Of a stretch of 30,409 bases of DNA, positions 9,722 through 27,745 are shown piece by piece. A program made the position numbers and the translations under genes. This stretch comes from an uncultured Planctomycetales bacterium (GTDB lineage Bacteria > Planctomycetota > PLA2 > JAEUHO01), in NCBI GenBank assembly GCA_964546345.1, contig CAZJJQ010000001.1:1-30409 (forward strand), given 5' to 3'. The notes beneath the pieces were generated by a model that was given only the letters and a program-made list of their open reading frames with translations, was not told where the DNA came from and did no database searches. Within the stretch, counting starts at the first letter, position 1. Each line of letters starts with the position of its first letter.

Positions 9722-10231
9722 ATGACCCCGCGGCTACCCACGTTGCTTCTGCTGGCGGTGGCCCTTTTCACAGGCTTCGTGCCGCTCCGTCGCTGCCACG
9801 CCTCCGAAGGCGGCAGCGGCGTCGTCGCGCTCGGCCAGCACGGGCACGCGCACGGCGACTCGGGGGAGTCGCACGCCCCGGCGGACCCTGCGTGCGGCGC
9901 AGCGCACGCGCGGCTCCACGCCCAGGGCATCCCGCACACGCACGCCGAGGGGCACGTCCACGGCGAGGAGGGCTGCCTCCACGACGTGTGCGGCTGCGAG
10001 CACGACGACTCCACGCCGGCGACCCACGAGCGGTGCTGCGTGGACACGCCGTTCGACGCGGGGCTCGCCTCCGTGTCGGTCGTCTTCGCCCCGGCCGCGC
10101 TCGCGCCCGACAGCCTCGTCTCGAGCGCCCTCGCGGGCGCCACGGCGGCCGCCCCCTCCCTCCTCGCCCCCCGCGCGGACGCGCCCCCCGACGCGCTCCG
10201 CAGCGTACGGACCACCGTCCTCCTCCGGTGA
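9722..10231 (+). CDS. His/Cys-rich exported leader protein of efflux module 1
   Basis: Signal peptide; 14 His and 7 Cys in 169 aa; C-terminus RADAPP...TTVLLR. Confidence 0.75.
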   Translation: MTPRLPTLLLLAVALFTGFVPLRRCHASEGGSGVVALGQHGHAHGDSGESHAPADPACGAAHARLHAQGIPHTHAEGHVHGEEGCLHDVCGCEHDDSTPATHERCCVDTPFDAGLASVSVVFAPAALAPDSLVSSALAGATAAAPSLLAPRADAPPDALRSVRTTVLLR

Positions 10232-15828: not shown

Positions 15829-17049
15829 ATGAACGCACGTACCGGAGTCCGCGTCGGCGTCGCCCTCGCGGCGACCCTTGCCTCCCTCGGCTGCGCGCGA
15901 TATCGAGCCGCACCGCTCGACGTCGGCCGCCCGCTCCGCGCGGATGCCGCTTCCGTCCCCTCCGTGGGGACGTACGAAGCCGCCGTGGCCTTCGCGATCG
16001 AGCACAACCCCGACCTCGCGGCGCTGCGCGCGCACGCGATGGCTGTGAACGTCGACCCGCCCCGCGAGCCCGTGGAGGGCTCGGGGGGCGTCGACTCCGA
16101 CCACCGGGGCGAGATCGGCATCTCGGTCGACGCGCTCTCGCTCCTCGGGCTCGGCACACGCCCCTACGAGGTGGCGCTCGCCTGCGCGCGCCGCAACGAG
16201 GCCTACATGGCGCATCACGAGCGGGCGCGTGCCATCGCCGGCGAGATCGCCGAGGTCCTCTCCGTCGAGCGGGCCCTCGGCGCGCTGGCCGAGCCGGAGT
16301 ACCGGGTGGACGTCAGCGCCTTCGTGCGCGCCGGCCTCGAGGCAGGCTCGGCCGAGACGGCGGCCGCGGCGACGGGAGCGGCCTGGAAGGCGGAGCAGGC
16401 CGAGCGCGTCGCCGAGCGGACGAGCACTCGGCTCGCGTGGATCCGCGCGCTCGGGTTGCCGTCCGGGTCCCAGGTGCGGGTCGTGCCCGTGCCTGCCGCG
16501 TGGCCCGAGGTGCCGGAACCGTCGCCCGCGGCGCTCGTCGCGTCGCGCGCCGACATCCAGCGACGGATCGCCGCGTTCGAGGCTGCGGACCGCGAGCTCC
16601 GGCTCGCCGTGCGCGGCCAGTACCCGTCCCTGATCCTCGAGCCGGGGCTCGCCTTCGACCCGGCCACGCTCTTCGGGGCCGTGAAGCTGCGGCTGCCGAC
16701 CGGCATGTCCGGCGCAGTCCGGGCCGCGGAGTCGGCGCGGGAGGCCGCGAGAGCCGAGGTGGAGTCGGCCGTCCTGGACGCCCTGCGCGAGGCCGGCGAG
16801 GCGCGGGCGCGCTGGACGGCGGCGGGCGCGGCGCTCTCGGCGGCCCGGAAGCGCGTGGATGCGTCGTCGGCGCTGCTTGCGAGCTCGCGTCTACGTCTCG
16901 AGGTGGCCTCGGGATCTCCCGTCGAGACCGTGCTCGCCGCGGACGCGGTGGTGGACGCGGCCGCGGGCCTGCGCGCCGCCACCGTCGAAGAAGCGCGCGC
17001 GCGGACGCGCGCGGCCCGCGCCGCCGGCTGGCCCGGACTTCCCCGGTAG
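15829..17049 (+). CDS. Divergent TolC/OMF-family outer membrane lipoprotein
   Basis: Lipobox SLGC; AVAFAIEHNPDLAALR; SRADIQRRIAAFEAADRELRLAVRGQYP; Ala/Arg/Glu helical repeats; operon context. Confidence 0.8.
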   Translation: MNARTGVRVGVALAATLASLGCARYRAAPLDVGRPLRADAASVPSVGTYEAAVAFAIEHNPDLAALRAHAMAVNVDPPREPVEGSGGVDSDHRGEIGISVDALSLLGLGTRPYEVALACARRNEAYMAHHERARAIAGEIAEVLSVERALGALAEPEYRVDVSAFVRAGLEAGSAETAAAATGAAWKAEQAERVAERTSTRLAWIRALGLPSGSQVRVVPVPAAWPEVPEPSPAALVASRADIQRRIAAFEAADRELRLAVRGQYPSLILEPGLAFDPATLFGAVKLRLPTGMSGAVRAAESAREAARAEVESAVLDALREAGEARARWTAAGAALSAARKRVDASSALLASSRLRLEVASGSPVETVLAADAVVDAAAGLRAATVEEARARTRAARAAGWPGLPR

Positions 17050-19405: not shown

Positions 19406-19945
19406 ATGCGCGTCAAGATGCTGATCTTCGTGACCCTGCTCGCCATGACCCCTCACATCGCCCAGGCCGAAGACAAGCCGCCGACCGCCGCACCGACGCC
19501 CGCCCCCAAGCAGGAGTTCGTCTACCTCGAGTTCACCGGAGTCGAGGAGTCGGAGCTGCCGGCGGTGATGGACGCCCTCGTCCGGCTCGACGGCGTGAGA
19601 TCCGTCGCATGGACCGCTCCTGGCAGAGAAGCGAAGGTCGTGCGGGAGCCCGGCAAGGCCGCCCACTCGCTGCTCGTGAAGGCGGCCCTCGACTCGGGCG
19701 CCGCGACCGCCGGCGTCGTCCCGATCACGGTCGCTGCGTTCAGATTCGACAAGATCCTGCATTGCCCGAGCTGCGTGAAGAAGGTCAACCGTGCGGTGCT
19801 CGCGGTTCCTGGAACCAAGGAGTCCGCGGTCGCCGGGGCCTTGGACCGCGTCACGGTGGCTTACGACTCTCGGGTCGCCAAGCCGCAGGCAGTGCTGGAC
19901 GCACTGGCCAGGGCCGAGTTCCCCGCGACGGCGTCGACTCCGTAG
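19406..19945 (+). CDS. Exported tandem HMA-fold protein (second domain with CxxC)
   Basis: GGAGG SD; signal peptide; ferredoxin-like pattern twice; LHCPSCVKKVNRAVLAVPG...VTVAYD in domain 2; no Cys in domain 1. Confidence 0.8.
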   Translation: MRVKMLIFVTLLAMTPHIAQAEDKPPTAAPTPAPKQEFVYLEFTGVEESELPAVMDALVRLDGVRSVAWTAPGREAKVVREPGKAAHSLLVKAALDSGAATAGVVPITVAAFRFDKILHCPSCVKKVNRAVLAVPGTKESAVAGALDRVTVAYDSRVAKPQAVLDALARAEFPATASTP

Positions 19946-19967
19946 GCCCGCGTCCCGAGTCGTAGGC

Positions 19968-20000
19968 CCGCCGCGACGCGCACCGGTCGCGTCGCGGTGG
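19968..20000 (+). terminator. GC-rich hairpin after module 1, possible terminator
   Basis: Perfect 10-bp stem CCGCGACGCG (19971-19980) / CGCGTCGCGG (19988-19997), extendable to 13 bp with one G-U; no U-tract. Preceded by an 11-bp direct repeat CGTAGGCCCGC (19941, 19961). Confidence 0.45.
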
Positions 20001-20339
20001 CGCAACTGGACCGGGCGGCGGACGCCTCGGCTGCCCGGTCGGTAGCCTCGCGTGCCTGTCGCTGCGCCTCCGCGTCGTGCTGTTTCGCGCAGGAGTAGGA
20101 CCGCCCGGAGTCCGACCGGGCGCACTGCGCCGTGGCGGGGCGCCCCGTCACAAGTCATGTCGTCTCCCAGACCCGCACGTGGTGCCGATTCCCCTCCCCA
20201 TCCGCGGGAAGGCCCTGGTGGCCGTTGTTCCAGAGACGGTGACGTTCGGGGCAGCGTCGGGGCGTCGTGGCGGCGGACCCCAAGACGTATGGGGCGCTCC
20301 GGGTCGTGCGCATCCTCGAGCCACCCACGTTCCAGAGTG

Positions 20340-20660
20340 TCACGAAGCGGTTCGGCCCATGCCCAGCAGCCGGGCCATGTCGCCCGTAGTTCGTTGAAGT
20401 CGGTGTAGTCGTACGAGCTCTTGGATTCGGTGCATGTCGGTCCTGTGCGCGTCCATGGGGCCCTCCCGGACGGAGTGTGTCCGGGGGAGGGTGCGGCGCG
20501 CGGCGTGGCCACGGGCACGAATGCGGGCCCGAGCGCGCGAGTGGATCCGCTTGGCCGAGCTGGGTGGTCCTGCTTGGCCGACCTGGACCTACGTCACCGC
20601 GCGCCCGGGGTGGACCTGCTTGCCCGAGCTACGGTGGTCCTGATAGCCCGGCCTGCGACA
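20340..20660 (-). mobile_element. Decayed IS21-family left end with istA 5' fragment
   Basis: The minus strand begins TGT at 20660, followed by four ~18-bp repeats. Then GGGAGGG and a 38-codon ORF (20456-20340) MDAHRTDMHRIQELVRLHRLQRTTGDMARLLGMGRTAS, which resembles the HTH N-terminus of IS21 IstA proteins as I recall them. No catalytic domain or istB. Confidence 0.65.
20541..20651. repeat. Four imperfect 18-bp direct repeats (consensus GTGGWCCTGCTTGSCCGA)
   Basis: Copies at 20541, 20564, 20610 and 20634; spacings 23, 46 and 24 nt. Confidence 0.85.
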
Positions 20661-20830
20661 CACCGCACGCTGGCGCCCTGCCTCGGCCCACGGGACAGTC
20701 CGCGCGCGTCGGGATCGTACGGCGTCGGTCGGTCCTCGCCCCCCGGCGCCCGAATGCCGAGGACGCTCGCGCCCGGGGGGGGCGCAGCCCCTGTATTCGC
20801 ATGACGGGGGAGTCGAAGAGGATCGGCCCG

Positions 20831-20839
20831 TGGTAGGAT
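20831..20839 (+). promoter_or_regulatory. Putative extended -10 (TGgTAGGAT) of module 2
   Basis: Overlaps ATG 20838 and lies 7 nt before in-frame GTG 20847, which may be the real leaderless start. Confidence 0.45.
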
Positions 20840-21230
20840 GGGACTCGTGACCCTCGGCGCCCGCCTCCTCGTGCTCCTGCTCGCGATCGTCCCTGCGATC
20901 TGGGGCATGTGCCCTTGCAGCATCGCAGAGTGCTGCGCCGATGAGGAGGGGTGCTGCTCGGACGAGGATCCGTGCGGGAACGAGTCCGCGCCAGGTCGCG
21001 AGCCGTCGCCGCAGGGCCCGTGTAAGGGGTGTGCCCTGATGGATGCTGGGCATGGCCTTCTGCCTCCGATGCCCTGCCCCTCGATCCTCGCGCACGTCGT
21101 CTTCGCCTGTCCCACGCCCGCACCGGAATTGGACGCCTCGGCTGCGTGTGTGTCCATTGCGCTGGCTGCCGACGTGCGTGCCCCCGGGCCACCCCGCGGG
21201 CATGCCGCATCCATGGTGCTGCTGATCTAA
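20838..21230 (+). CDS. Cys-rich leader protein of efflux module 2 (alternative start GTG 20847)
   Basis: Hydrophobic N-terminus; 12 Cys including CPC, CC, CC and CKGC; C-terminus RAPGPP...SMVLLI. Confidence 0.75.
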   Translation: MGLVTLGARLLVLLLAIVPAIWGMCPCSIAECCADEEGCCSDEDPCGNESAPGREPSPQGPCKGCALMDAGHGLLPPMPCPSILAHVVFACPTPAPELDASAACVSIALAADVRAPGPPRGHAASMVLLI

Positions 21231-21288
21231 GCGACGCGAGCCAGCCGCCGTCCCCGGACGGATTCCATCTCATGGAGGCACTCGCATG
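21201..21288 (+). promoter_or_regulatory. Putative anti-SD/anti-start pairing over the OMF translation start
   Basis: GCATCCATG (21207-21215) pairs with CATGGAGGC (21271-21279) at 8 of 9 positions. CATGC (21201-21205) pairs with GCATG (21284-21288, includes the ATG). Internal 5-bp hairpin 21248-21261. Confidence 0.4.
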
Positions 21289-22737
21289 TTTCGCTCTTGT
21301 TCTGCGTCAGCGTTCGTCGGCAGTGACCTCGCTTCGCACTCGATCCGCTGCTCGCGGAACGAGATTGCAGGAGAGGAGTCGTCGATCCGAGCGGGTCGAG
21401 GCACCGCAGCGATCCGTCGATCCCTGCTGCTCCCCGTCCTGTTCGTGCTGTCCGCGTGCGCCCAGGCGCGCCCCATTCCGCTCGACCTCAGGTCGTTCGA
21501 GGCGGGACTCCCCCGTGCGCGCCGTGAGGCCGTCCCAGCGCCCGCCTTGGCTTGGCGGGGGGCGACGAGCCTCACCCTCGCCGAGCTGCGCGCGGCGGCC
21601 GACGAGACGAATCCGGAGATCGCAGCCGAGCGCAAGGAGATCGACGTCTCGACCGCAGCCATCTGGGAGGCACGACTCTACCCCAACCCCACGCTCCTGC
21701 TCGAGTATGAGGACTTCCCCGTCGGGAGCCGCTCGAACGGGACAGCTCGCGTTGGGGTCCGGGTCCCGCTCGTCATCGGCGACCGCCTCAAGGCCGGCTC
21801 CCGTGCGGCGGAGAAGGAACGGGAGGTCGTCGCGCTTCGCTTCCTATGGCGCCGACGCGAGATCCTCCTGGGGGTGCGCAAGGCGTACATCGACCTGCTC
21901 GCGGCGAGGCGAGCACGCGACGCGGCGCACGAGTCGCGTGACGTTGCCCGGAGTCTGCTCGACGCTGCGGAGGCGCGGCTTGCCGCTCAGGCAGCGCCGG
22001 AGGTCGAGGTGCTCAAGTCGCGCATCGAGCTGTCCACAGCCGAGGCCGAGCTTGAGGCGGCCGAGGCTTCGGTCTCGGCGGCAGGTCGCACGCTCGAGGC
22101 CTCCATCGGCCCCGCGAGCTTGGCAGCGGATCGTGTCGTGGGAGATCTCGCGCCCGGATACGCCGTTCCGACGTTTCAGGACCTCCGCGCTCAGATCGAA
22201 GGACGTAGCGCGCTGGAGGAGATCGCCCGCGCGGAACTGGCCGCCGCGGAGGCGCAGATCTCCGCCGCGCGGGCCGAGAAGACGCCCGACATCGAGCTGG
22301 AGGCGAAGGCCGGACGGAACGGCGACGGAGAGGGCGTAGGAAGCCTCGGCATCGGGATCCCCCTGCCCTTCAACAATCGCAACCAGGCGAAGGTCGCTTC
22401 ATCGGAAGCGAGATCGCTCCAAGCCGTCGCACGCGTCCAGGCTGCGCGCCAGGAGCTGCTGCGGCGCCTCATCGCGGTGCACCGCGATCTCTCCACGGCG
22501 CAGGCGCGGGTGACGCGCCTATCCACCATGTCCGTCCCGACGGCAGAGACGAGCCTCTCCCAAGTGCGCCTCGGCTTCGAGAAGGGCAAGCTCGCCTACC
22601 TCGACGTGATCGACGCGCGCAGAAGCCTGAGCGAGACCAAGTCGGCGCTTGCGGCAGCGCTGGCCCAGCTGAACACGGCCGCCGCGGAGCTCGAGGCCCT
22701 GACGGGGCTCGAGCTTCCCCCCATCCCACCCAAGTAG
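21286..22737 (+). CDS. czcC: CzcC-like TolC-family outer membrane protein
   Basis: GGAGG SD; lipobox VLSAC; ADETNPEIAA, ARLYPNPTL, GIGIPLPFNNRNQ, GFEKGKLAYLDVIDARRSL; upstream of czcB/czcA-like genes. Confidence 0.85.
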   Translation: MFRSCSASAFVGSDLASHSIRCSRNEIAGEESSIRAGRGTAAIRRSLLLPVLFVLSACAQARPIPLDLRSFEAGLPRARREAVPAPALAWRGATSLTLAELRAAADETNPEIAAERKEIDVSTAAIWEARLYPNPTLLLEYEDFPVGSRSNGTARVGVRVPLVIGDRLKAGSRAAEKEREVVALRFLWRRREILLGVRKAYIDLLAARRARDAAHESRDVARSLLDAAEARLAAQAAPEVEVLKSRIELSTAEAELEAAEASVSAAGRTLEASIGPASLAADRVVGDLAPGYAVPTFQDLRAQIEGRSALEEIARAELAAAEAQISAARAEKTPDIELEAKAGRNGDGEGVGSLGIGIPLPFNNRNQAKVASSEARSLQAVARVQAARQELLRRLIAVHRDLSTAQARVTRLSTMSVPTAETSLSQVRLGFEKGKLAYLDVIDARRSLSETKSALAAALAQLNTAAAELEALTGLELPPIPPK

Positions 22738-22748
22738 GAGGAGTCCTT

Positions 22749-23219
22749 GTGAAGACGAAGCTGTTTCCCCTCATGACCCTCGCCGCCCTGCTCGTCGCGG
22801 GCGTCGCCCTCGCCGGAGAGCCCTCGGCGAAGCGTCGCGAGGACAAGGATCGCATCGAGATCCCCGGCACGATCGTCAGCATCGGTGCGACGCTCGAAGG
22901 CTTCGGCGCCAACGCCGAAGACACCCTGTACACGAAGGGCGCACAGGGACTGCTTGCTCCCGACGGCACGCTCTGGACCTTCGTGAAGAACGCCAAGGGC
23001 TTCGGCGTCGTCACCAACGAGAAGCTGCGCGGCAAGGAGATCAAGGTGCTCGGCTGGAAGTACCCCAAGGCCCAGTACGTGGAGATCGCGCGGTACGCCG
23101 TCAAGGAGGGCGAGAAGTGGGTGCCGTACGACTTCTGCAAGAACTGCGGCTGGGAGGCCAACCACGACAACAAGGACACCGACCTCTGCGAAGACTGCCG
23201 CGCGGACGCGGGGAAGTAG
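22749..23219 (+). CDS. Exported hypothetical protein with a C-terminal Cys4 (CKNC...CEDC) motif
   Basis: AGGAGGAG SD, GTG start, signal peptide, strongly G/C-ending codons. Confidence 0.85.
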   Translation: MKTKLFPLMTLAALLVAGVALAGEPSAKRREDKDRIEIPGTIVSIGATLEGFGANAEDTLYTKGAQGLLAPDGTLWTFVKNAKGFGVVTNEKLRGKEIKVLGWKYPKAQYVEIARYAVKEGEKWVPYDFCKNCGWEANHDNKDTDLCEDCRADAGK

Positions 23220-23222
23220 AAC

Positions 23223-24533
23223 ATGCTCCGCGCCCTCTTGGCGGCCCTCCGCGGACTCGTCAGCCTCGGTGTGCTCGGCGGGATCGCGCTCGCGTTCTAC
23301 GCCGTGGGTCATGACGGCCGCCTGCCATGGCAGCCCGAGGCGACGCATGGCAAGGACTGGTGTGACACGCACCAGGTACCCCTTTCCACCGACGACAAGT
23401 GCAACCCGAAGCTCGCTCGGGGGGGACTCCTCGTCGCCCGCGAGCACGAGCCAAAGGACGGGGAGTGTCCCAACACCGTCGTCCGGATCACCATGCCGCC
23501 CGACGTCGCCGAACGGGTCGGGATCCAGCTGATCGAGGTGCAGCCCAGGAGCGTGTCCGAGTCCCTCAAGACGACGGCCGAGACCGCATACGCGCCGACG
23601 CGTTACGCGCGCGTCGCCCCGCGGAGCGCGGGCATCGTCCGCGAAGTGCGAGCGAGCATGGGCCAAGACGTCGTGGCAGGGGCGGTCTTGGCCATCGTCG
23701 AGGCTCCCGAGATGGGTCAGGCCGCGACGACCTACCGGCAGGCGGTCGCCCAGCTGCGTTTGCGCGAGAAGACCCACGCGCAAGAAAAGGAGCTGACCGA
23801 GAAGAAGATCTCGTCCGGTCATGACCTGCTCGTCGCGACGGCCGAGCTCGAGGAGGCCCGGCTTTCCGCGTCGGCGGCACGCCAGCACCTGCTGACCCTG
23901 GGGCTCGGGGCCGACCGGATCGAGACCCTCGAGGGCACGGAGGATCCGGTCTCGACGATCGAGGTTCGGGCTCCGTTCGACGGCACGATCCTCGACGCGA
24001 GCGCGGTGCTCGGCGAGAACGCGGGACCGGACAAACCACTGTTCAGCGTCGCCGACGCCTCGCGAATGTGGCTGTCGATCGATGTCTACGAAGCCGATGT
24101 CACGAAGGTGGAGAAGGACCAGCGCGTCACGTTCACCATGGACGGCATGCCGGGGTTGCGTTTCACGGGGAGGATCACCGCGCTCGGCGGGTCGGTGGAC
24201 GAGCGCACGCGCACGCTGCGTGTGGTCGCCGAGGTCAAGAACCCACAGGGGGTCCTACGGGAGCACATGTTCGGTCACGTGGACATCCAGGTGAAGCCGC
24301 CCGAGCCGAAGCTGATCGTGCCCCGAGACGCCGTGCAGACCGATGGTGACTGCTACTTCGTGTTCACCTCCGCCTCGGCGAACGTCTTCCGGACGCGACC
24401 CGTGGACCTCGGGATCGCCTATCAGAGCGGCTACGAGATCAAGGGAGGCCTCGTCGCCGGCGAGAGAGTCGTGACCGTCGGGAGCTTCTCCCTCAAGTCG
24501 GAGGTGCTGCGCGGGGAGATGGGCGCGGGTTGA
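23223..24533 (+). CDS. czcB: CzcB-like membrane fusion protein with an N-terminal WCxxH...C motif
   Basis: ARVAPRSAGIVREV, EVRAPFDGTI, ADASRMWLSIDVYE, VDERTRTLRV, LIVPRDAVQ, GLVAGERVVTVGSF; DWCDTHQVPLSTDDKCNPKL. Confidence 0.9.
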   Translation: MLRALLAALRGLVSLGVLGGIALAFYAVGHDGRLPWQPEATHGKDWCDTHQVPLSTDDKCNPKLARGGLLVAREHEPKDGECPNTVVRITMPPDVAERVGIQLIEVQPRSVSESLKTTAETAYAPTRYARVAPRSAGIVREVRASMGQDVVAGAVLAIVEAPEMGQAATTYRQAVAQLRLREKTHAQEKELTEKKISSGHDLLVATAELEEARLSASAARQHLLTLGLGADRIETLEGTEDPVSTIEVRAPFDGTILDASAVLGENAGPDKPLFSVADASRMWLSIDVYEADVTKVEKDQRVTFTMDGMPGLRFTGRITALGGSVDERTRTLRVVAEVKNPQGVLREHMFGHVDIQVKPPEPKLIVPRDAVQTDGDCYFVFTSASANVFRTRPVDLGIAYQSGYEIKGGLVAGERVVTVGSFSLKSEVLRGEMGAG

Positions 24534-24574
24534 TGCGTGGAGAAGTAACGCCGCGGTCGCGGCGATAGGACGCA

Positions 24575-27500
24575 ATGCTCAACTGGATCATCGAAGTCTC
24601 TCTCCGGCACCGGAAGCTGGTGCTGGTCCTCTCCGCCCTCGTCGCGGCGCTGGGCGTCTACTCCGTCCAGCACCTGTCGGTCGACGCCTTCCCCGACGTC
24701 ACCGATGTCATGGTGCAGATCAACACCGTCGCCCCCGCGCTGGGGCCCGCAGAGGTCGAGCAGCAGATCAGCGCGAAGGTCGAGCAGGTGATGGGCGGGC
24801 TGCCCCGCCTGAAGCTGGTCCGGTCCATGTCGAAGTTCGGGCTCTCGCAGGTGACGCTCGTCTTCGAGGACGGGACCGACATCTACTTCGCCCGCGCCCA
24901 GGTGCTCGAGCGGCTGCAGGCGGTGGAGCTTCCACAGGGCCTCGAGCGGCCCACGATGGGGCCAGTAGCGACGGGCCTTGGGGAGATCTACCACTTCCTC
25001 GTGACGGCGCCGGGGGGCGACCTTGGCGACACACGCACGCTCACGGACTGGGTGATCAAGCCACAGCTCCTCTCCGTGCCGGGTGTCGCCGAGGTGAACG
25101 CCTGGGGCGGCCTCGAGATGCAGTTTCAAATCGTCATCGACCCGATGCGCCTCGTGAAGTACGGGCTCGCCGCACGAGACGTGGTGGAGGCGGTCGAGCG
25201 GTCGAACGCAAACGTTGGGGGAGGGCTCGCGCGCGCCTCGGGCGAGGACTTGCTGGTGCACGGGGTCGGCATCGTGACCAACGAGGCCCAGATCGGCGCG
25301 ATCCCGATCCGCTCCGAGGACGGGCGCTCGGTCCGCGTCCGTGACGTCGCCGACGTCGTCCGCGGGCACGAGACCCGCCGGGGCGTCGTCACGGCGGACG
25401 GCCGGGGCGAGGTGGTGCTCGGGCTCGGGTTCATGCTGATGGGCGAGAACTCCCACGTCGTCGCCGGGCGCTTGCGGGAGAAGATGGAGGAGGTGAAGAA
25501 GACCCTGCCCGAGGGGACGAAGATCGACGTCGTCTACGACCGGACAGACCTCGTCGATCACGTGATCGGGACGGTGAAGCGCAACCTCTTCGAGGGCGCG
25601 CTCCTGGTGATCGCCGTGTTGTTCGTCTTCCTGGGCAACTTCCGGGCCGCGCTCATCGTCGCCGCGGCCATTCCGCTGTCGATGCTCTTCGCGTTCAGCC
25701 TCATGGTCCGCGCGGGGATCGCAGGCACCCTCATGAGCCTGGGTGCCCTCGACTTCGGCCTGATCGTCGACAGCTCCGTCATCATGATCGAGAACTCGGT
25801 GCGCCACCTCGGCGCGGCACCTCCGGGACAATCGGTGGCCGAGATCGTCGCCCGCGCCTCGAAGGAGGTGCGCAAGCCGACGATGTTCGGCGAGCTGATC
25901 ATCATGATCGTCTACCTGCCGATCCTCGCCCTCGAGGGGGTCGAGGGGAAGCTCTTCAAGCCGATGGCCCTGACGGTTGTGTTCGCGCTGCTCGGCTCGA
26001 TGTTCTTCTCCCTGACCCTCATGCCGGTGCTCGCGAGCCTGGCGTTGGGACGCAGCGGACGCGCACATCACGAGCCGTGGGTCGTGCGAGTGTTCAAGTG
26101 GATGTATCGACCCCTCGTGCGATTCACCGTGGACCACCCGATCGTCACGATCAGTGCCGCCCTGATCGCGGTGGCCGGCACCGTGCCGATCGCCATGGGT
26201 CTTGGCTCCGTCTTCGTCCCCAAGCTCGACGAGGGATCCATCGTGATCAACACGGTGCGATTCCCCGGCGTCTCGGTGGACGAGAGCGTGCGCATAGGCA
26301 CCCGGATCGAGCGCTTGATGCTCGAGCAGTTCCCGAACGAGGTGGCACGCATCTGGACGCGGACGGGGACGCCGGAGGTGGCGACCGATCCCATGGGGCT
26401 GGAGGTGAGCGACGTGTTCGTGATGCTCCGGCCTCGCGAACGGTGGACCGCGGCCAGGACCCGTGAGGAGCTCGAGCAGAGGATGCGCGGCGTCCTGAAG
26501 TCGCTGCCCGGCATGGCCTTCTCGTTCACGCAACCCATCGAGATGCGGTTCAACGAGATGATCTCCGGCGTGCGCACCGACGTCGGGGTGAAGGTCTTCG
26601 GGGACGAGTACGACGTTCTCAAGGAGTTGGCCACGAAGGTCCAGACGATCCTCGCGGGCGTCCGCGGAGCCGCGGAGCCTGCCGTCGAGCCGGTCGCCGG
26701 CCAACCGGTCCTGGAGGTCACGCTGGACCAGGAAGCGCTGTCCCGGCACGGGCTGCAAGCGAAGGATGTCCTGGATCTCGTGGAAGCTGCGGGCGGGCTG
26801 GAGGTCGGCGAGATCCGCACCGGTCAGCGACGGCTCCCGCTGTCGATTCGCCTTCCGGAGAAGTTCGTCAACAACGTGGACGTCTTCTCCACGCTCATCG
26901 TTCCAACGCCGGATGGCCAGCGGCTGCCGCTCAAGAGCCTCGCCAAGGTCGAACGCCTGTCCGGTCCTCTGGTGATCAATCGAGAGTGGGGCAAGCGGCG
27001 GGTCGTGGTGACGACCAACGTCGTCGGCCGCGACCTCGGGAGCTTCGTGTCCGAGGCATCGGAGCGAATCGAGGAGAAGCTGGGCGACGAGCTTCGCAAG
27101 CGCGGCTGCCGCGTCGAATTCGGAGGTCAGTACGAGAATCTCGTTCGCGCCTCCAAGACGCTCAGCTACGTCGTGCCGATCGCGCTGCTGCTGATCCTCG
27201 TGCTGGTCTACTCCACGTACGGCAACGTGCGGGACTCGCTGCGTGTCTTCACCGGCGTACCCTTCTCTCTGGTCGGCGGGGTGCTCGCGCTCCACTTCCG
27301 CCACATGCCTCTGAGCATTTCGGCGGGAGTCGGTTTCATCGCTCTCGCCGGAGTCTCCGTCCTGGCCGACATGGTGATGGTCTCGACGATTCGCCAGATC
27401 CTCGCTCAGGGCGTCGGTGTTCGCCAGGCCGTGCTGGCCGCGGCCGAGCAACGTCTCCGCCCCGTGCTCATGACCGCCCTGGTCGCCAGCCTCGGCTTCA

Positions 27501-27745
27501 TCCCGATGGCCTTCAACACGGGCATCGGCTCGGAGGTGCAGCGGCCGCTGGCGACGGTCGTCATCGGCGGACTCATCTCCTCCACGATCCTGACGCTGTT
27601 CGTGCTTCCGACGCTGTTCGCGGCATTGCGCGTCCGTCAGCGACGGGAGCCATCGCCGCCGGAGCGACCCGCACCGGGGCAGGCCCCGGGCTCCGAGCCG
27701 GGCGTGCACGAGCCGTCGGCCGCCCCCCCCGCTGCGAAGCCATGA
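24575..27745 (+). CDS. czcA: CzcA-type heavy-metal efflux RND permease
   Basis: DAFPDVTDVMVQINT, MGPVATGLGEIY, TM4 SLGALDFGLIVDSSVIMIEN, FVPKLDEG, QPIEMRFNEMISG, RLRPVLMTALVASLGFIPMA, EVQRPLATVVIGG. Confidence 0.95.
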   Translation: MLNWIIEVSLRHRKLVLVLSALVAALGVYSVQHLSVDAFPDVTDVMVQINTVAPALGPAEVEQQISAKVEQVMGGLPRLKLVRSMSKFGLSQVTLVFEDGTDIYFARAQVLERLQAVELPQGLERPTMGPVATGLGEIYHFLVTAPGGDLGDTRTLTDWVIKPQLLSVPGVAEVNAWGGLEMQFQIVIDPMRLVKYGLAARDVVEAVERSNANVGGGLARASGEDLLVHGVGIVTNEAQIGAIPIRSEDGRSVRVRDVADVVRGHETRRGVVTADGRGEVVLGLGFMLMGENSHVVAGRLREKMEEVKKTLPEGTKIDVVYDRTDLVDHVIGTVKRNLFEGALLVIAVLFVFLGNFRAALIVAAAIPLSMLFAFSLMVRAGIAGTLMSLGALDFGLIVDSSVIMIENSVRHLGAAPPGQSVAEIVARASKEVRKPTMFGELIIMIVYLPILALEGVEGKLFKPMALTVVFALLGSMFFSLTLMPVLASLALGRSGRAHHEPWVVRVFKWMYRPLVRFTVDHPIVTISAALIAVAGTVPIAMGLGSVFVPKLDEGSIVINTVRFPGVSVDESVRIGTRIERLMLEQFPNEVARIWTRTGTPEVATDPMGLEVSDVFVMLRPRERWTAARTREELEQRMRGVLKSLPGMAFSFTQPIEMRFNEMISGVRTDVGVKVFGDEYDVLKELATKVQTILAGVRGAAEPAVEPVAGQPVLEVTLDQEALSRHGLQAKDVLDLVEAAGGLEVGEIRTGQRRLPLSIRLPEKFVNNVDVFSTLIVPTPDGQRLPLKSLAKVERLSGPLVINREWGKRRVVVTTNVVGRDLGSFVSEASERIEEKLGDELRKRGCRVEFGGQYENLVRASKTLSYVVPIALLLILVLVYSTYGNVRDSLRVFTGVPFSLVGGVLALHFRHMPLSISAGVGFIALAGVSVLADMVMVSTIRQILAQGVGVRQAVLAAAEQRLRPVLMTALVASLGFIPMAFNTGIGSEVQRPLATVVIGGLISSTILTLFVLPTLFAALRVRQRREPSPPERPAPGQAPGSEPGVHEPSAAPPAAKP

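Follow-up and report, generated by a model that had tools for sequence, protein, structure and literature searches.

Positions 1 to 30,409 of the forward strand of contig CAZJJQ010000001.1 (GenBank assembly GCA_964546345.1), from an uncultured Planctomycetales bacterium, contain a small Cys-rich open reading frame (ORF) that heads a metal efflux operon; we refer to this whole stretch of 30,409 nt as the window. The ORF is followed, after a spacer of 55 nt between its stop codon and ATG 21286, by the gene for an outer membrane factor (OMF) with its Shine-Dalgarno (SD) sequence, and further downstream by the genes for an adaptor and a pump of the resistance-nodulation-division (RND) type (Table 1). 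We found that the ORF belongs to a conserved family with a predicted export signal, cysteine motifs and a C-terminal proline pair, an architecture recalling the upstream-encoded proteins CutF and CruR, and we think it probable, with moderate confidence, that it acts as a metal sensor in cis.

Table 1 Coordinates of the features discussed in the text (positions in the window)
Feature	Position	Strand	Remarks
Second leader-like ORF, 169 aa, His/Cys-rich, with signal peptide	9722..10231	+	Heads the other efflux module of the contig
Small ORF, predicted exported Cys-rich CutF-like protein	20838/20847..21230	+	ORF list, homologues, profile search
Predicted N-terminal export signal	20853..20906	+	R9, 14-residue hydrophobic core; ends in conserved P-A-x-W-G (here A-I-W-G)
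Cys-rich putative ligand region	20910..21032	+	C25-P-C27, C32C33, C39C40, C45, C62-K-G-C65
R-A-P-G-P-P codons	21177..21194	+	P119 = 21192-21194, invariant in the family; C65 to R114 = 48 residues
11-residue tail ending S-M-V-L-L-I, with stop codon	21195..21230	+	Stop TAA 21228-21230
5' arm CATGCCGCATCCATG	21201..21215	+	Inside codons 122-126
Predicted intergenic multi-branch structure	21230..21295	+	Masks the SD in minimum free energy folds; pairs AGCGA 21230-34/TCGCT 21291-95, GCGAG 21236-40/CTCGC 21281-85 and GCC 21244-46/GGC 21277-79; hairpins 21248-61 and TCCAT/ATGGA 21264-76
SD GGAGG, 7-nt spacer and OMF start codon	21274..21288	+	SD 21274-21278; ATG 21286; anti-SD duplex -9.3 kcal/mol
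OMF (OEP/TolC family) lipoprotein	21286..22737	+	Pfam OEP, 3e-46
Rest of the operon	22749..27745	+	156-aa exported protein, adaptor, RND pump
CzcB-type adaptor	23223-24533	+	
CusA/CzcA-family RND pump	24575-27745	+	Transmembrane segment 4 (TM4) LDFGLIVD...IEN

The small Cys-rich ORF is a conserved gene

Judged by its homologues, ORF 20838/20847-21230 is a real conserved gene. It encodes 130 aa from ATG 20838 or 127 aa from GTG 20847, the latter being the start in a near-identical database protein (P0001, 99% identity), and its product has 12 Cys and an N-terminal Arg followed by a hydrophobic core. A word-based search returned a 48% identical homologue (P0002, E 6e-27), and full-length matches occurred in related genomes. 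With 70% G+C in the region, three overlapping ORFs exceeding 200 aa on the opposite strand and a G+C content at third codon positions (GC3) of only 0.79 for the ORF itself, one might suspect a chance open frame in GC-rich DNA that encodes nothing. The order of the codon positions is, however, GC3>GC1>GC2, and full-length homologues with 29-48% identity keep the motifs, the ends and the synteny across many genomes and metagenomes, so that a chance frame is already refuted and its probability is negligible. An earlier note, made from the letters of this DNA, had called the ORF a leader, which is misleading, as what is encoded is a conserved protein of 127-130 aa.

The predicted export signal is conserved in 27/27 aligned members, with W22 and P19 invariant. 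When the family alignment was supplied to AlphaFold, only the signal helix (residues 6-23) was modelled with confidence (predicted local distance difference test score, pLDDT, 85-90), the overall pLDDT being 63.7, and the protein outside this helix is predicted to be unstructured and of low complexity.

A profile search of 1.84 billion representatives matched 29 clusters, of which 20 had E<=1e-10. The 27-sequence profile had matches in 8/16 sampled genomes of the bacterium's own taxonomic family and in 1/6 genomes of a sister family, and the remaining 378 Planctomycetota genomes that were sampled gave none; the small-ORF family lies almost wholly in one Planctomycetota family. The taxa of the nearest Atlas clusters point to this phylum too. 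A search for related loci with a 4-sequence alignment re-found only those of G019 and G010. No Pfam or NCBIfam model matches any family member.

In the 27-sequence alignment, members are 121-152 aa long and share the motifs WGxCP, CPCC and C62xxC65, a P-A-P stretch, G-x-P-P and a terminal TVVLL[I/V]. Two of the cysteines, C40 and C65, never vary, C25 and C62 hardly do, and C39C40 is conserved. P119, the last proline of G-x-P-P, is likewise invariant in the 27 aligned members. Between C65 and P119 the length of the linker is held at 52.6 +/- 2.5 residues while its sequence is unconserved, and the C25-C65 segment varies in length with a standard deviation of 5.8. The C-terminus lies 10-18 residues (mode 11) beyond P119, and the hydrophobic tail admits replacements of Leu by Arg in some members (VLRI, VLRF and VLLR).

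The exact RAPG tetrapeptide is at chance level

Residues 114-119 of the ORF, encoded in frame by cgt gcc ccc ggg cca ccc, read R-A-P-G-P-P as previously described, and R-A-P-G is the core of the arrest sequence of ApcA, in which elongation stops when Pro occupies the P site and Gly the A site (PMC7897499, PMC12992588). From this the earlier note had built a model in which an ApcA-type arrest at R-A-P|G (P site 21183-85) switches between a long-range helix over the OMF start region and a local TCCAT/ATGGA hairpin. The identity of the motif stands, and a clade of close relatives with R-x-P-G (RGPG, RPPG) at the same place would suit such an arrest; RPLG also occurs there among close relatives. 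RAPG is nevertheless not the element conserved here, which is G-x-P-P with its invariant Pro: among about 30 relatives the exact form is confined to the window and G010, and distant members have DPGGPPP, GGAPPP, GPAPP, HGPP and, in one case, RAPP. In a proxy proteome of ~1.2 million residues from this genome, RAPG was observed 148 times against 138 expected, and it lies within the last 20 residues of 5/2704 ORFs. With a count so near expectation, the exact tetrapeptide is at chance level and the conserved element is the proline pair. Moreover, RAPG causes arrest only in its native ApcA surroundings and fails in those of ApdP and SecM, whereas RAPP and RGPP are versatile (PMC7897499, PMC12992588).

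The geometry of a stalled ribosome also speaks against this model. With the Pro of codon 21183-21185 in the P site, the ribosome would protect the mRNA only to about 21198-21200 and so would not reach the 21201-21215 arm of the proposed helix; from P119, protection would extend to about 21207 and would open only the 5-bp part over the ATG.

The Shine-Dalgarno sequence is predicted to be masked, in relatives mostly by sequence at the stop codon

The two arms of the long-range helix are placed exactly as the earlier note claimed, with CATGCCGCATCCATG at 21201-21215 facing CATGGAGGC-actc-GCATG at 21271-21288, the latter covering both the SD and the start codon; they are complementary, with an RNAduplex energy of -14.0 kcal/mol. 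The TCCAT-ctc-ATGGA hairpin (21264-21276) is equally real and appears in the minimum free energy (MFE) folds. What found no support is the role of the long-range pairing as a switch over SD and ATG, for other structures are favoured and the region folds no better than shuffled sequence. The helix is the MFE structure only in the 101-nt frame 21195-21295 (z = -0.03). When 21170-21310 was folded, the MFE used other pairs, comprising a hairpin in the coding region and the intergenic multi-branch structure (z = -1.41), and the partner of the SD changed again in longer frames. The probability that the SD is unpaired was 0.05-0.07 in all four ribosome positions modelled, and the local structure at 21244-21279 (the GCC/GGC pair and the 21264-76 hairpin) is responsible for its staying paired. 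In homologous loci, furthermore, the anti-SD lies at the stop codon and not in codons 122-126. Although the arrest core and the helix both exist, we therefore regard the model of an RAPG-driven switch as quite improbable.

Across the family there is nevertheless a trend towards masking of the SD. SD accessibility was below the shuffle mean in 11/12 loci, and in 4 loci it fell at or below the 3rd percentile; Fisher's method, applied by hand to 11 loci, gave p about 0.005, uncorrected for relatedness. The main partner of the SD lies within -16..+24 nt of the small-ORF stop in about 10/12 loci; for G007, G027 and the second leader-like ORF of the window it falls within the tail codons, and for G013, G016, G019, G026, G003 and G032 just after the stop. 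Masking of the mRNA by a stop-bound ribosome raised the modelled accessibility of the SD in 5 loci (G013, from 0.33 to 0.62; G016, from 0.12 to 0.35; G003, G007 and G032), and a proline-bound ribosome left it unchanged across loci. Since the anti-SD is at the stop and the prolines of typical members are 33-48 nt upstream of the stop, a proline-stalled ribosome would not be expected to melt the helix.

This arrangement raises the alternative of a pause at termination, in which TVVLL[I/V] would occupy the peptidyl-transferase centre with G-x-P-P about 11-13 residues back at the tunnel constriction, so that a TnaC-like slow release would hold the ribosome on the anti-SD. The constrained distance from P119 to the end and the conservation of the last residues are in keeping with it, as are the stop-proximal SD partners and the response of five loci to the stop mask. 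However, no known termination-arrest motif resembles VVLLI, Leu-to-Arg replacements are found in the tail, and the stop mask is without effect in the window. Resting purely on geometry, a termination pause is in our judgement hardly likely.

The second leader-like ORF of the window (9722-10231) has a comparable 3' end. Its product ends in A-P-P, ten residues (DALRSVRTTV) and L-L-R, and the SD of the next gene, GGAGGAGG, is predicted to pair with its tail codons GTC CTC CTC CGG. Its likeness to the small-ORF family is confined to the final 14-16 residues (hhalign E 0.044).

The position of the OMF start codon bears on the claimed pairing as well. ATG 21286 is well served by its SD, but the first ~36 residues read from it are unconserved in OMF orthologues, of which 2/3 align from residue 37-38 and the third from residue 17, and signal peptides of the orthologues are 16-20 residues long. 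GC3 is 0.70 in 21286-21384 and 0.84 in the remainder of the OMF gene. No in-frame ATG, GTG or TTG is present closer to the OMF lipobox. Initiation at an in-frame ATC, which is situated at 21385 and follows GGAGAGGAG (21370-21378) by 6 nt, would yield a normal lipoprotein signal peptide of 24 residues. If the OMF were initiated at 21385, the claimed pairing over SD and ATG would be beside the point.

The ORF takes the place of an ArsR-type regulator

The TM4 motif of the RND pump is one that we take to mark the divalent-cation type of heavy-metal efflux (HME-RND) pumps, and it suggests Zn/Cd/Co-type metals rather than Cu as the substrate. A Zn/Cd-type P1B ATPase and an HMA protein are encoded upstream of the small ORF. 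Among the relatives, 11/13 loci have an OMF-like lipoprotein gene with an SD 45-115 nt downstream of the small gene. In one of them (G019:C109, L019:8001-14301, from the metagenome-assembled genome Planctomycetota bacterium SJ703) the small ORF and the OMF-like lipoprotein are followed by a fusion of adaptor and ATP-binding cassette (ABC) domains and two MacB-type permeases. As the family heads an RND system in the window and a MacB-type ABC system in G019, it is not tied to RND pumps.

The operons orthologous to that of the window begin differently: the three closest OMF orthologues (G019:C103 L036, G020:C13 L037 and G009:C5 L038) are all directly preceded, upstream of position 1501 of each locus, by an ArsR/SmtB-family gene, identified by Pfam HTH_5 in two and recognised from the translated upstream sequence in the third. 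With ArsR in the same position of orthologous operons, the small ORF occupies the slot of a regulator and travels between different efflux systems. A tblastn search of the window gave no ArsR remnant, and a scan of 19900-21400 for promoter and terminator consensus sequences found nothing.

Several further observations concern the neighbourhood. The HMA gene and the small ORF are separated by ~890 nt (19946-20837) that contain no intact gene and may be pseudogene remains; within them, the frame 19997-20389 has high third-position G+C and is broken by stops, and the minus strand carries a short helix-turn-helix-like ORF (20340-20456). We considered the spacer 19950-20835 as a repeated mobile element and rejected this, as it is present in a single copy in the genome. 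The 156-aa exported protein between OMF and adaptor (22749-23219) has no Pfam or NCBIfam match and, to judge by where it lies and how it is spaced, may be a periplasmic accessory of the pump. The lipoproteins of ~410 aa that follow most family members match Pfam OEP with E 0.0018 in L013 and 0.11 in L019, and not at E<=1 in L017, and the window ORF 15829-17049 matches it with 7e-8. These downstream lipoproteins of L013, L017 and L019 and the product of 15829-17049 have a conserved start, A-C-x-x-Y-R-P, in common and look like a divergent subfamily of OMFs.

A possible nascent-chain metal sensor

Our favoured reading, held with moderate confidence, is that the ORF acts in cis as a nascent-chain metal sensor like CutF and CruR. 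During translation and export its Cys motifs (WGxCP, CPCC and CxxC) would meet metal outside the ribosome, while G-x-P-P, ~52 residues further downstream, would sit at the peptidyl-transferase centre and slow or arrest elongation. The time spent by the ribosome in the last part of the ORF would then decide whether the masked OMF SD, 55 nt downstream, is used, in that the SD would stay closed as long as a ribosome pauses at the prolines, and ribosomes that are released and reach the stop would open it. Export, metal binding, stalling at the prolines, the effect on OMF translation and the direction of regulation are all steps that we infer. That the family heads an RND system here and a MacB-type ABC system in G019 fits a portable cis module. 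The general idea of the earlier note, namely an exported, metal-ligand-rich upstream ORF with a C-terminal proline motif and cis control of the next gene, is supported by the conservation of the gene, its fixed place at the head of efflux operons, its agreement with the rule-based CutF-like definition and the ArsR gene found in its slot in orthologous operons, but its specifics are not.

A more detailed version can be formulated as a lineage-specific 'release-to-activate' sensor. As long as the chain is held at G-x-P-P, ~11 codons short of the stop, the first SD of the efflux operon would remain shut by the anti-SD at the stop codon, until metal-driven folding of the exported Cys region, or pulling on it, frees the ribosome, whose arrival at the stop, perhaps with a second pause on TVVLL[I/V], would open the SD; the whole would form a portable post-transcriptional switch that answers to divalent metals and not to copper and replaces ArsR-type repressors on RND and MacB operons. 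We consider this version rather unlikely.

Several results weigh against a nascent-chain sensor. In the window, a ribosome modelled at RAPG, at the proline pair or at the stop leaves the accessibility of the SD unchanged, and the SD-to-AUG accessibility is at the 28th percentile of shuffles of the upstream part, i.e. the masking is no stronger than in these. A proline pair in the last 15 residues is found in 14% of the ORFs of this GC-rich genome. No PF11162 match at E<=1, that is, to the DUF2946 family of CruR, was obtained in any of the 27 members, and hhalign against a seven-sequence DUF2946 alignment gave a probability of 0.2%. Finally, the conserved last residues would be made after the supposed stall and hence are unexplained by a CutF-type model, and the distant members G013, G022 and G032 are without the proline pair yet retain the hydrophobic tail, which is therefore maybe the more essential element.

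The persistence of the TVVLL[I/V] end, the most enduring feature of the family, would be easier to reconcile with an ordinary accessory protein co-expressed with the pump, i.e. a small Cys-rich metal binder, exported or anchored in the membrane, that would serve as a chaperone, as a metal buffer or as a partner to the OMF or adaptor. The prolines would then form part of a Pro/Ala linker, the C-terminus would be a docking strand or a degradation tag, and the pairing at the stop would be plain translational coupling without sensing. Small periplasmic accessory proteins, such as CusF, CzcE and CzcI, are common in metal RND operons, which favours such a role. Several of the conserved Cys motifs, too, lie far upstream of any segment that would reside in the tunnel, and simple translational coupling would call for just such an anti-SD at the stop codon. 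Against this stand the predicted lack of structure beyond the signal helix and a linker that is constrained in length and not in sequence. The gene, moreover, is always the first and is paired with unrelated inner-membrane pumps (RND and MacB-ABC), and an ArsR regulator holds the same slot in orthologous operons. We regard an accessory protein as possible, though somewhat doubtful.

Comparison with known systems

The resemblance of the ORF product to ApcA of Rhodococcus erythropolis (Sakiyama et al., PMC7897499) and to other substrates that monitor Sec and YidC (Fujiwara et al., PMC10987492) extends to the predicted N-terminal export or membrane signal and, for ApcA and in the window copy, to the C-proximal R-A-P-G. 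Unlike such substrates, which are encoded directly upstream of sec or yidC genes, the ORF precedes an OEP-family efflux OMF; unlike in ApcA, RAPG is not conserved among the family members, which have a Cys-rich putative ligand region and come from a different phylum.

CruR (Bp2923 of Bordetella pertussis) belongs to Pfam DUF2946/PF11162 (Roy et al., PMC9426467), and its arrest was shown in PMC12992588. It has RAPP 3 residues from its end, acts through Rho termination and controls a TonB-dependent importer (PMC9426467). The small ORF resembles it as an upstream ORF with a predicted export signal, a CXXC and a ruler of roughly 45-50 residues to an R-x-P-P-like motif, and as the first gene of metal-homeostasis operons. 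In DUF2946 proteins, however, RAPP lies about 45 +/-2 residues from CXXC and about 3 from the C-terminus, whereas here 48 residues separate C65 from R114 and 52 from the proline pair, and 11 residues follow. As no DUF2946 homology is detectable, the likeness to CutF and CruR is architectural. The genome does contain a single PF11162 match above cut-off (L021:1483-1929, minus strand of contig C264, 26.9 bits). The product of that gene is His/Cys-rich, with CALC, 44 residues and then RGPPPP four residues before the C-terminus, and the gene lies upstream of one for a secreted protein of unknown family.

A further parallel is with CutF, encoded in the cutFOG operon of Rhodobacter capsulatus. Both CutF and CruR are exported, are encoded by upstream ORFs, carry a Cys motif as well as C-terminal prolines, and act in cis on the next gene in response to copper (PMC9973294; bioRxiv 10.1101/2025.02.05.636593; PMC9426467). 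Ozturk et al. defined CutF-like genes by a length below 150 aa, a proline pair among the final 15 residues, a signal peptide and a downstream gene in the same orientation, and found OEP genes of RND systems to be their commonest downstream neighbours (PMC9973294). The ORF of the window falls within this rule-based definition: its product has 130 aa, with P118-P119 followed by 11 residues; the OMF gene starts on the same strand 55 nt downstream, at ATG 21286; and the putative metal ligands are C62xxC65, C25 and C39C40, the signal peptide being judged from the sequence and the modelled helix. A search of the accessible literature found no paper testing a CutF-like gene before an efflux OMF. As with CutF, the gene is the small first one of a metal operon and combines a predicted Sec-type signal, a Cys motif and C-terminal prolines with a short spacer to a same-strand gene whose SD is, here, predicted to be base-paired. 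In contrast to CutF, to which the small-ORF family has no detectable sequence relationship, it has G-x-P-P in place of PPP, 10-18 residues after the prolines that end in the conserved hydrophobic TVVLL[I/V], and, in typical relatives, an anti-SD at the stop codon, 33-48 nt past the prolines; the accompanying pump belongs to the divalent (CzcA) type or, in one relative, to MacB-ABC, and the lineage is Planctomycetota.

In the literature consulted, the only experimentally characterised members of this class, CutF and CruR, are from Proteobacteria and sense copper (PMC9973294, PMC9426467). Their architecture is found here in an unrelated Planctomycetota family, before a Czc-type RND pump and, in a relative, a MacB-type ABC system. 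The comparison offers a name for the otherwise 'hypothetical' first gene of such efflux operons. If functional, the family would make a compact test case for the coupling of a stop-distant pause to downstream initiation, and, placed beside CutF and CruR, it would mark nascent-chain metal sensing as a convergent, modular solution able to stand in for ArsR-type repressors.

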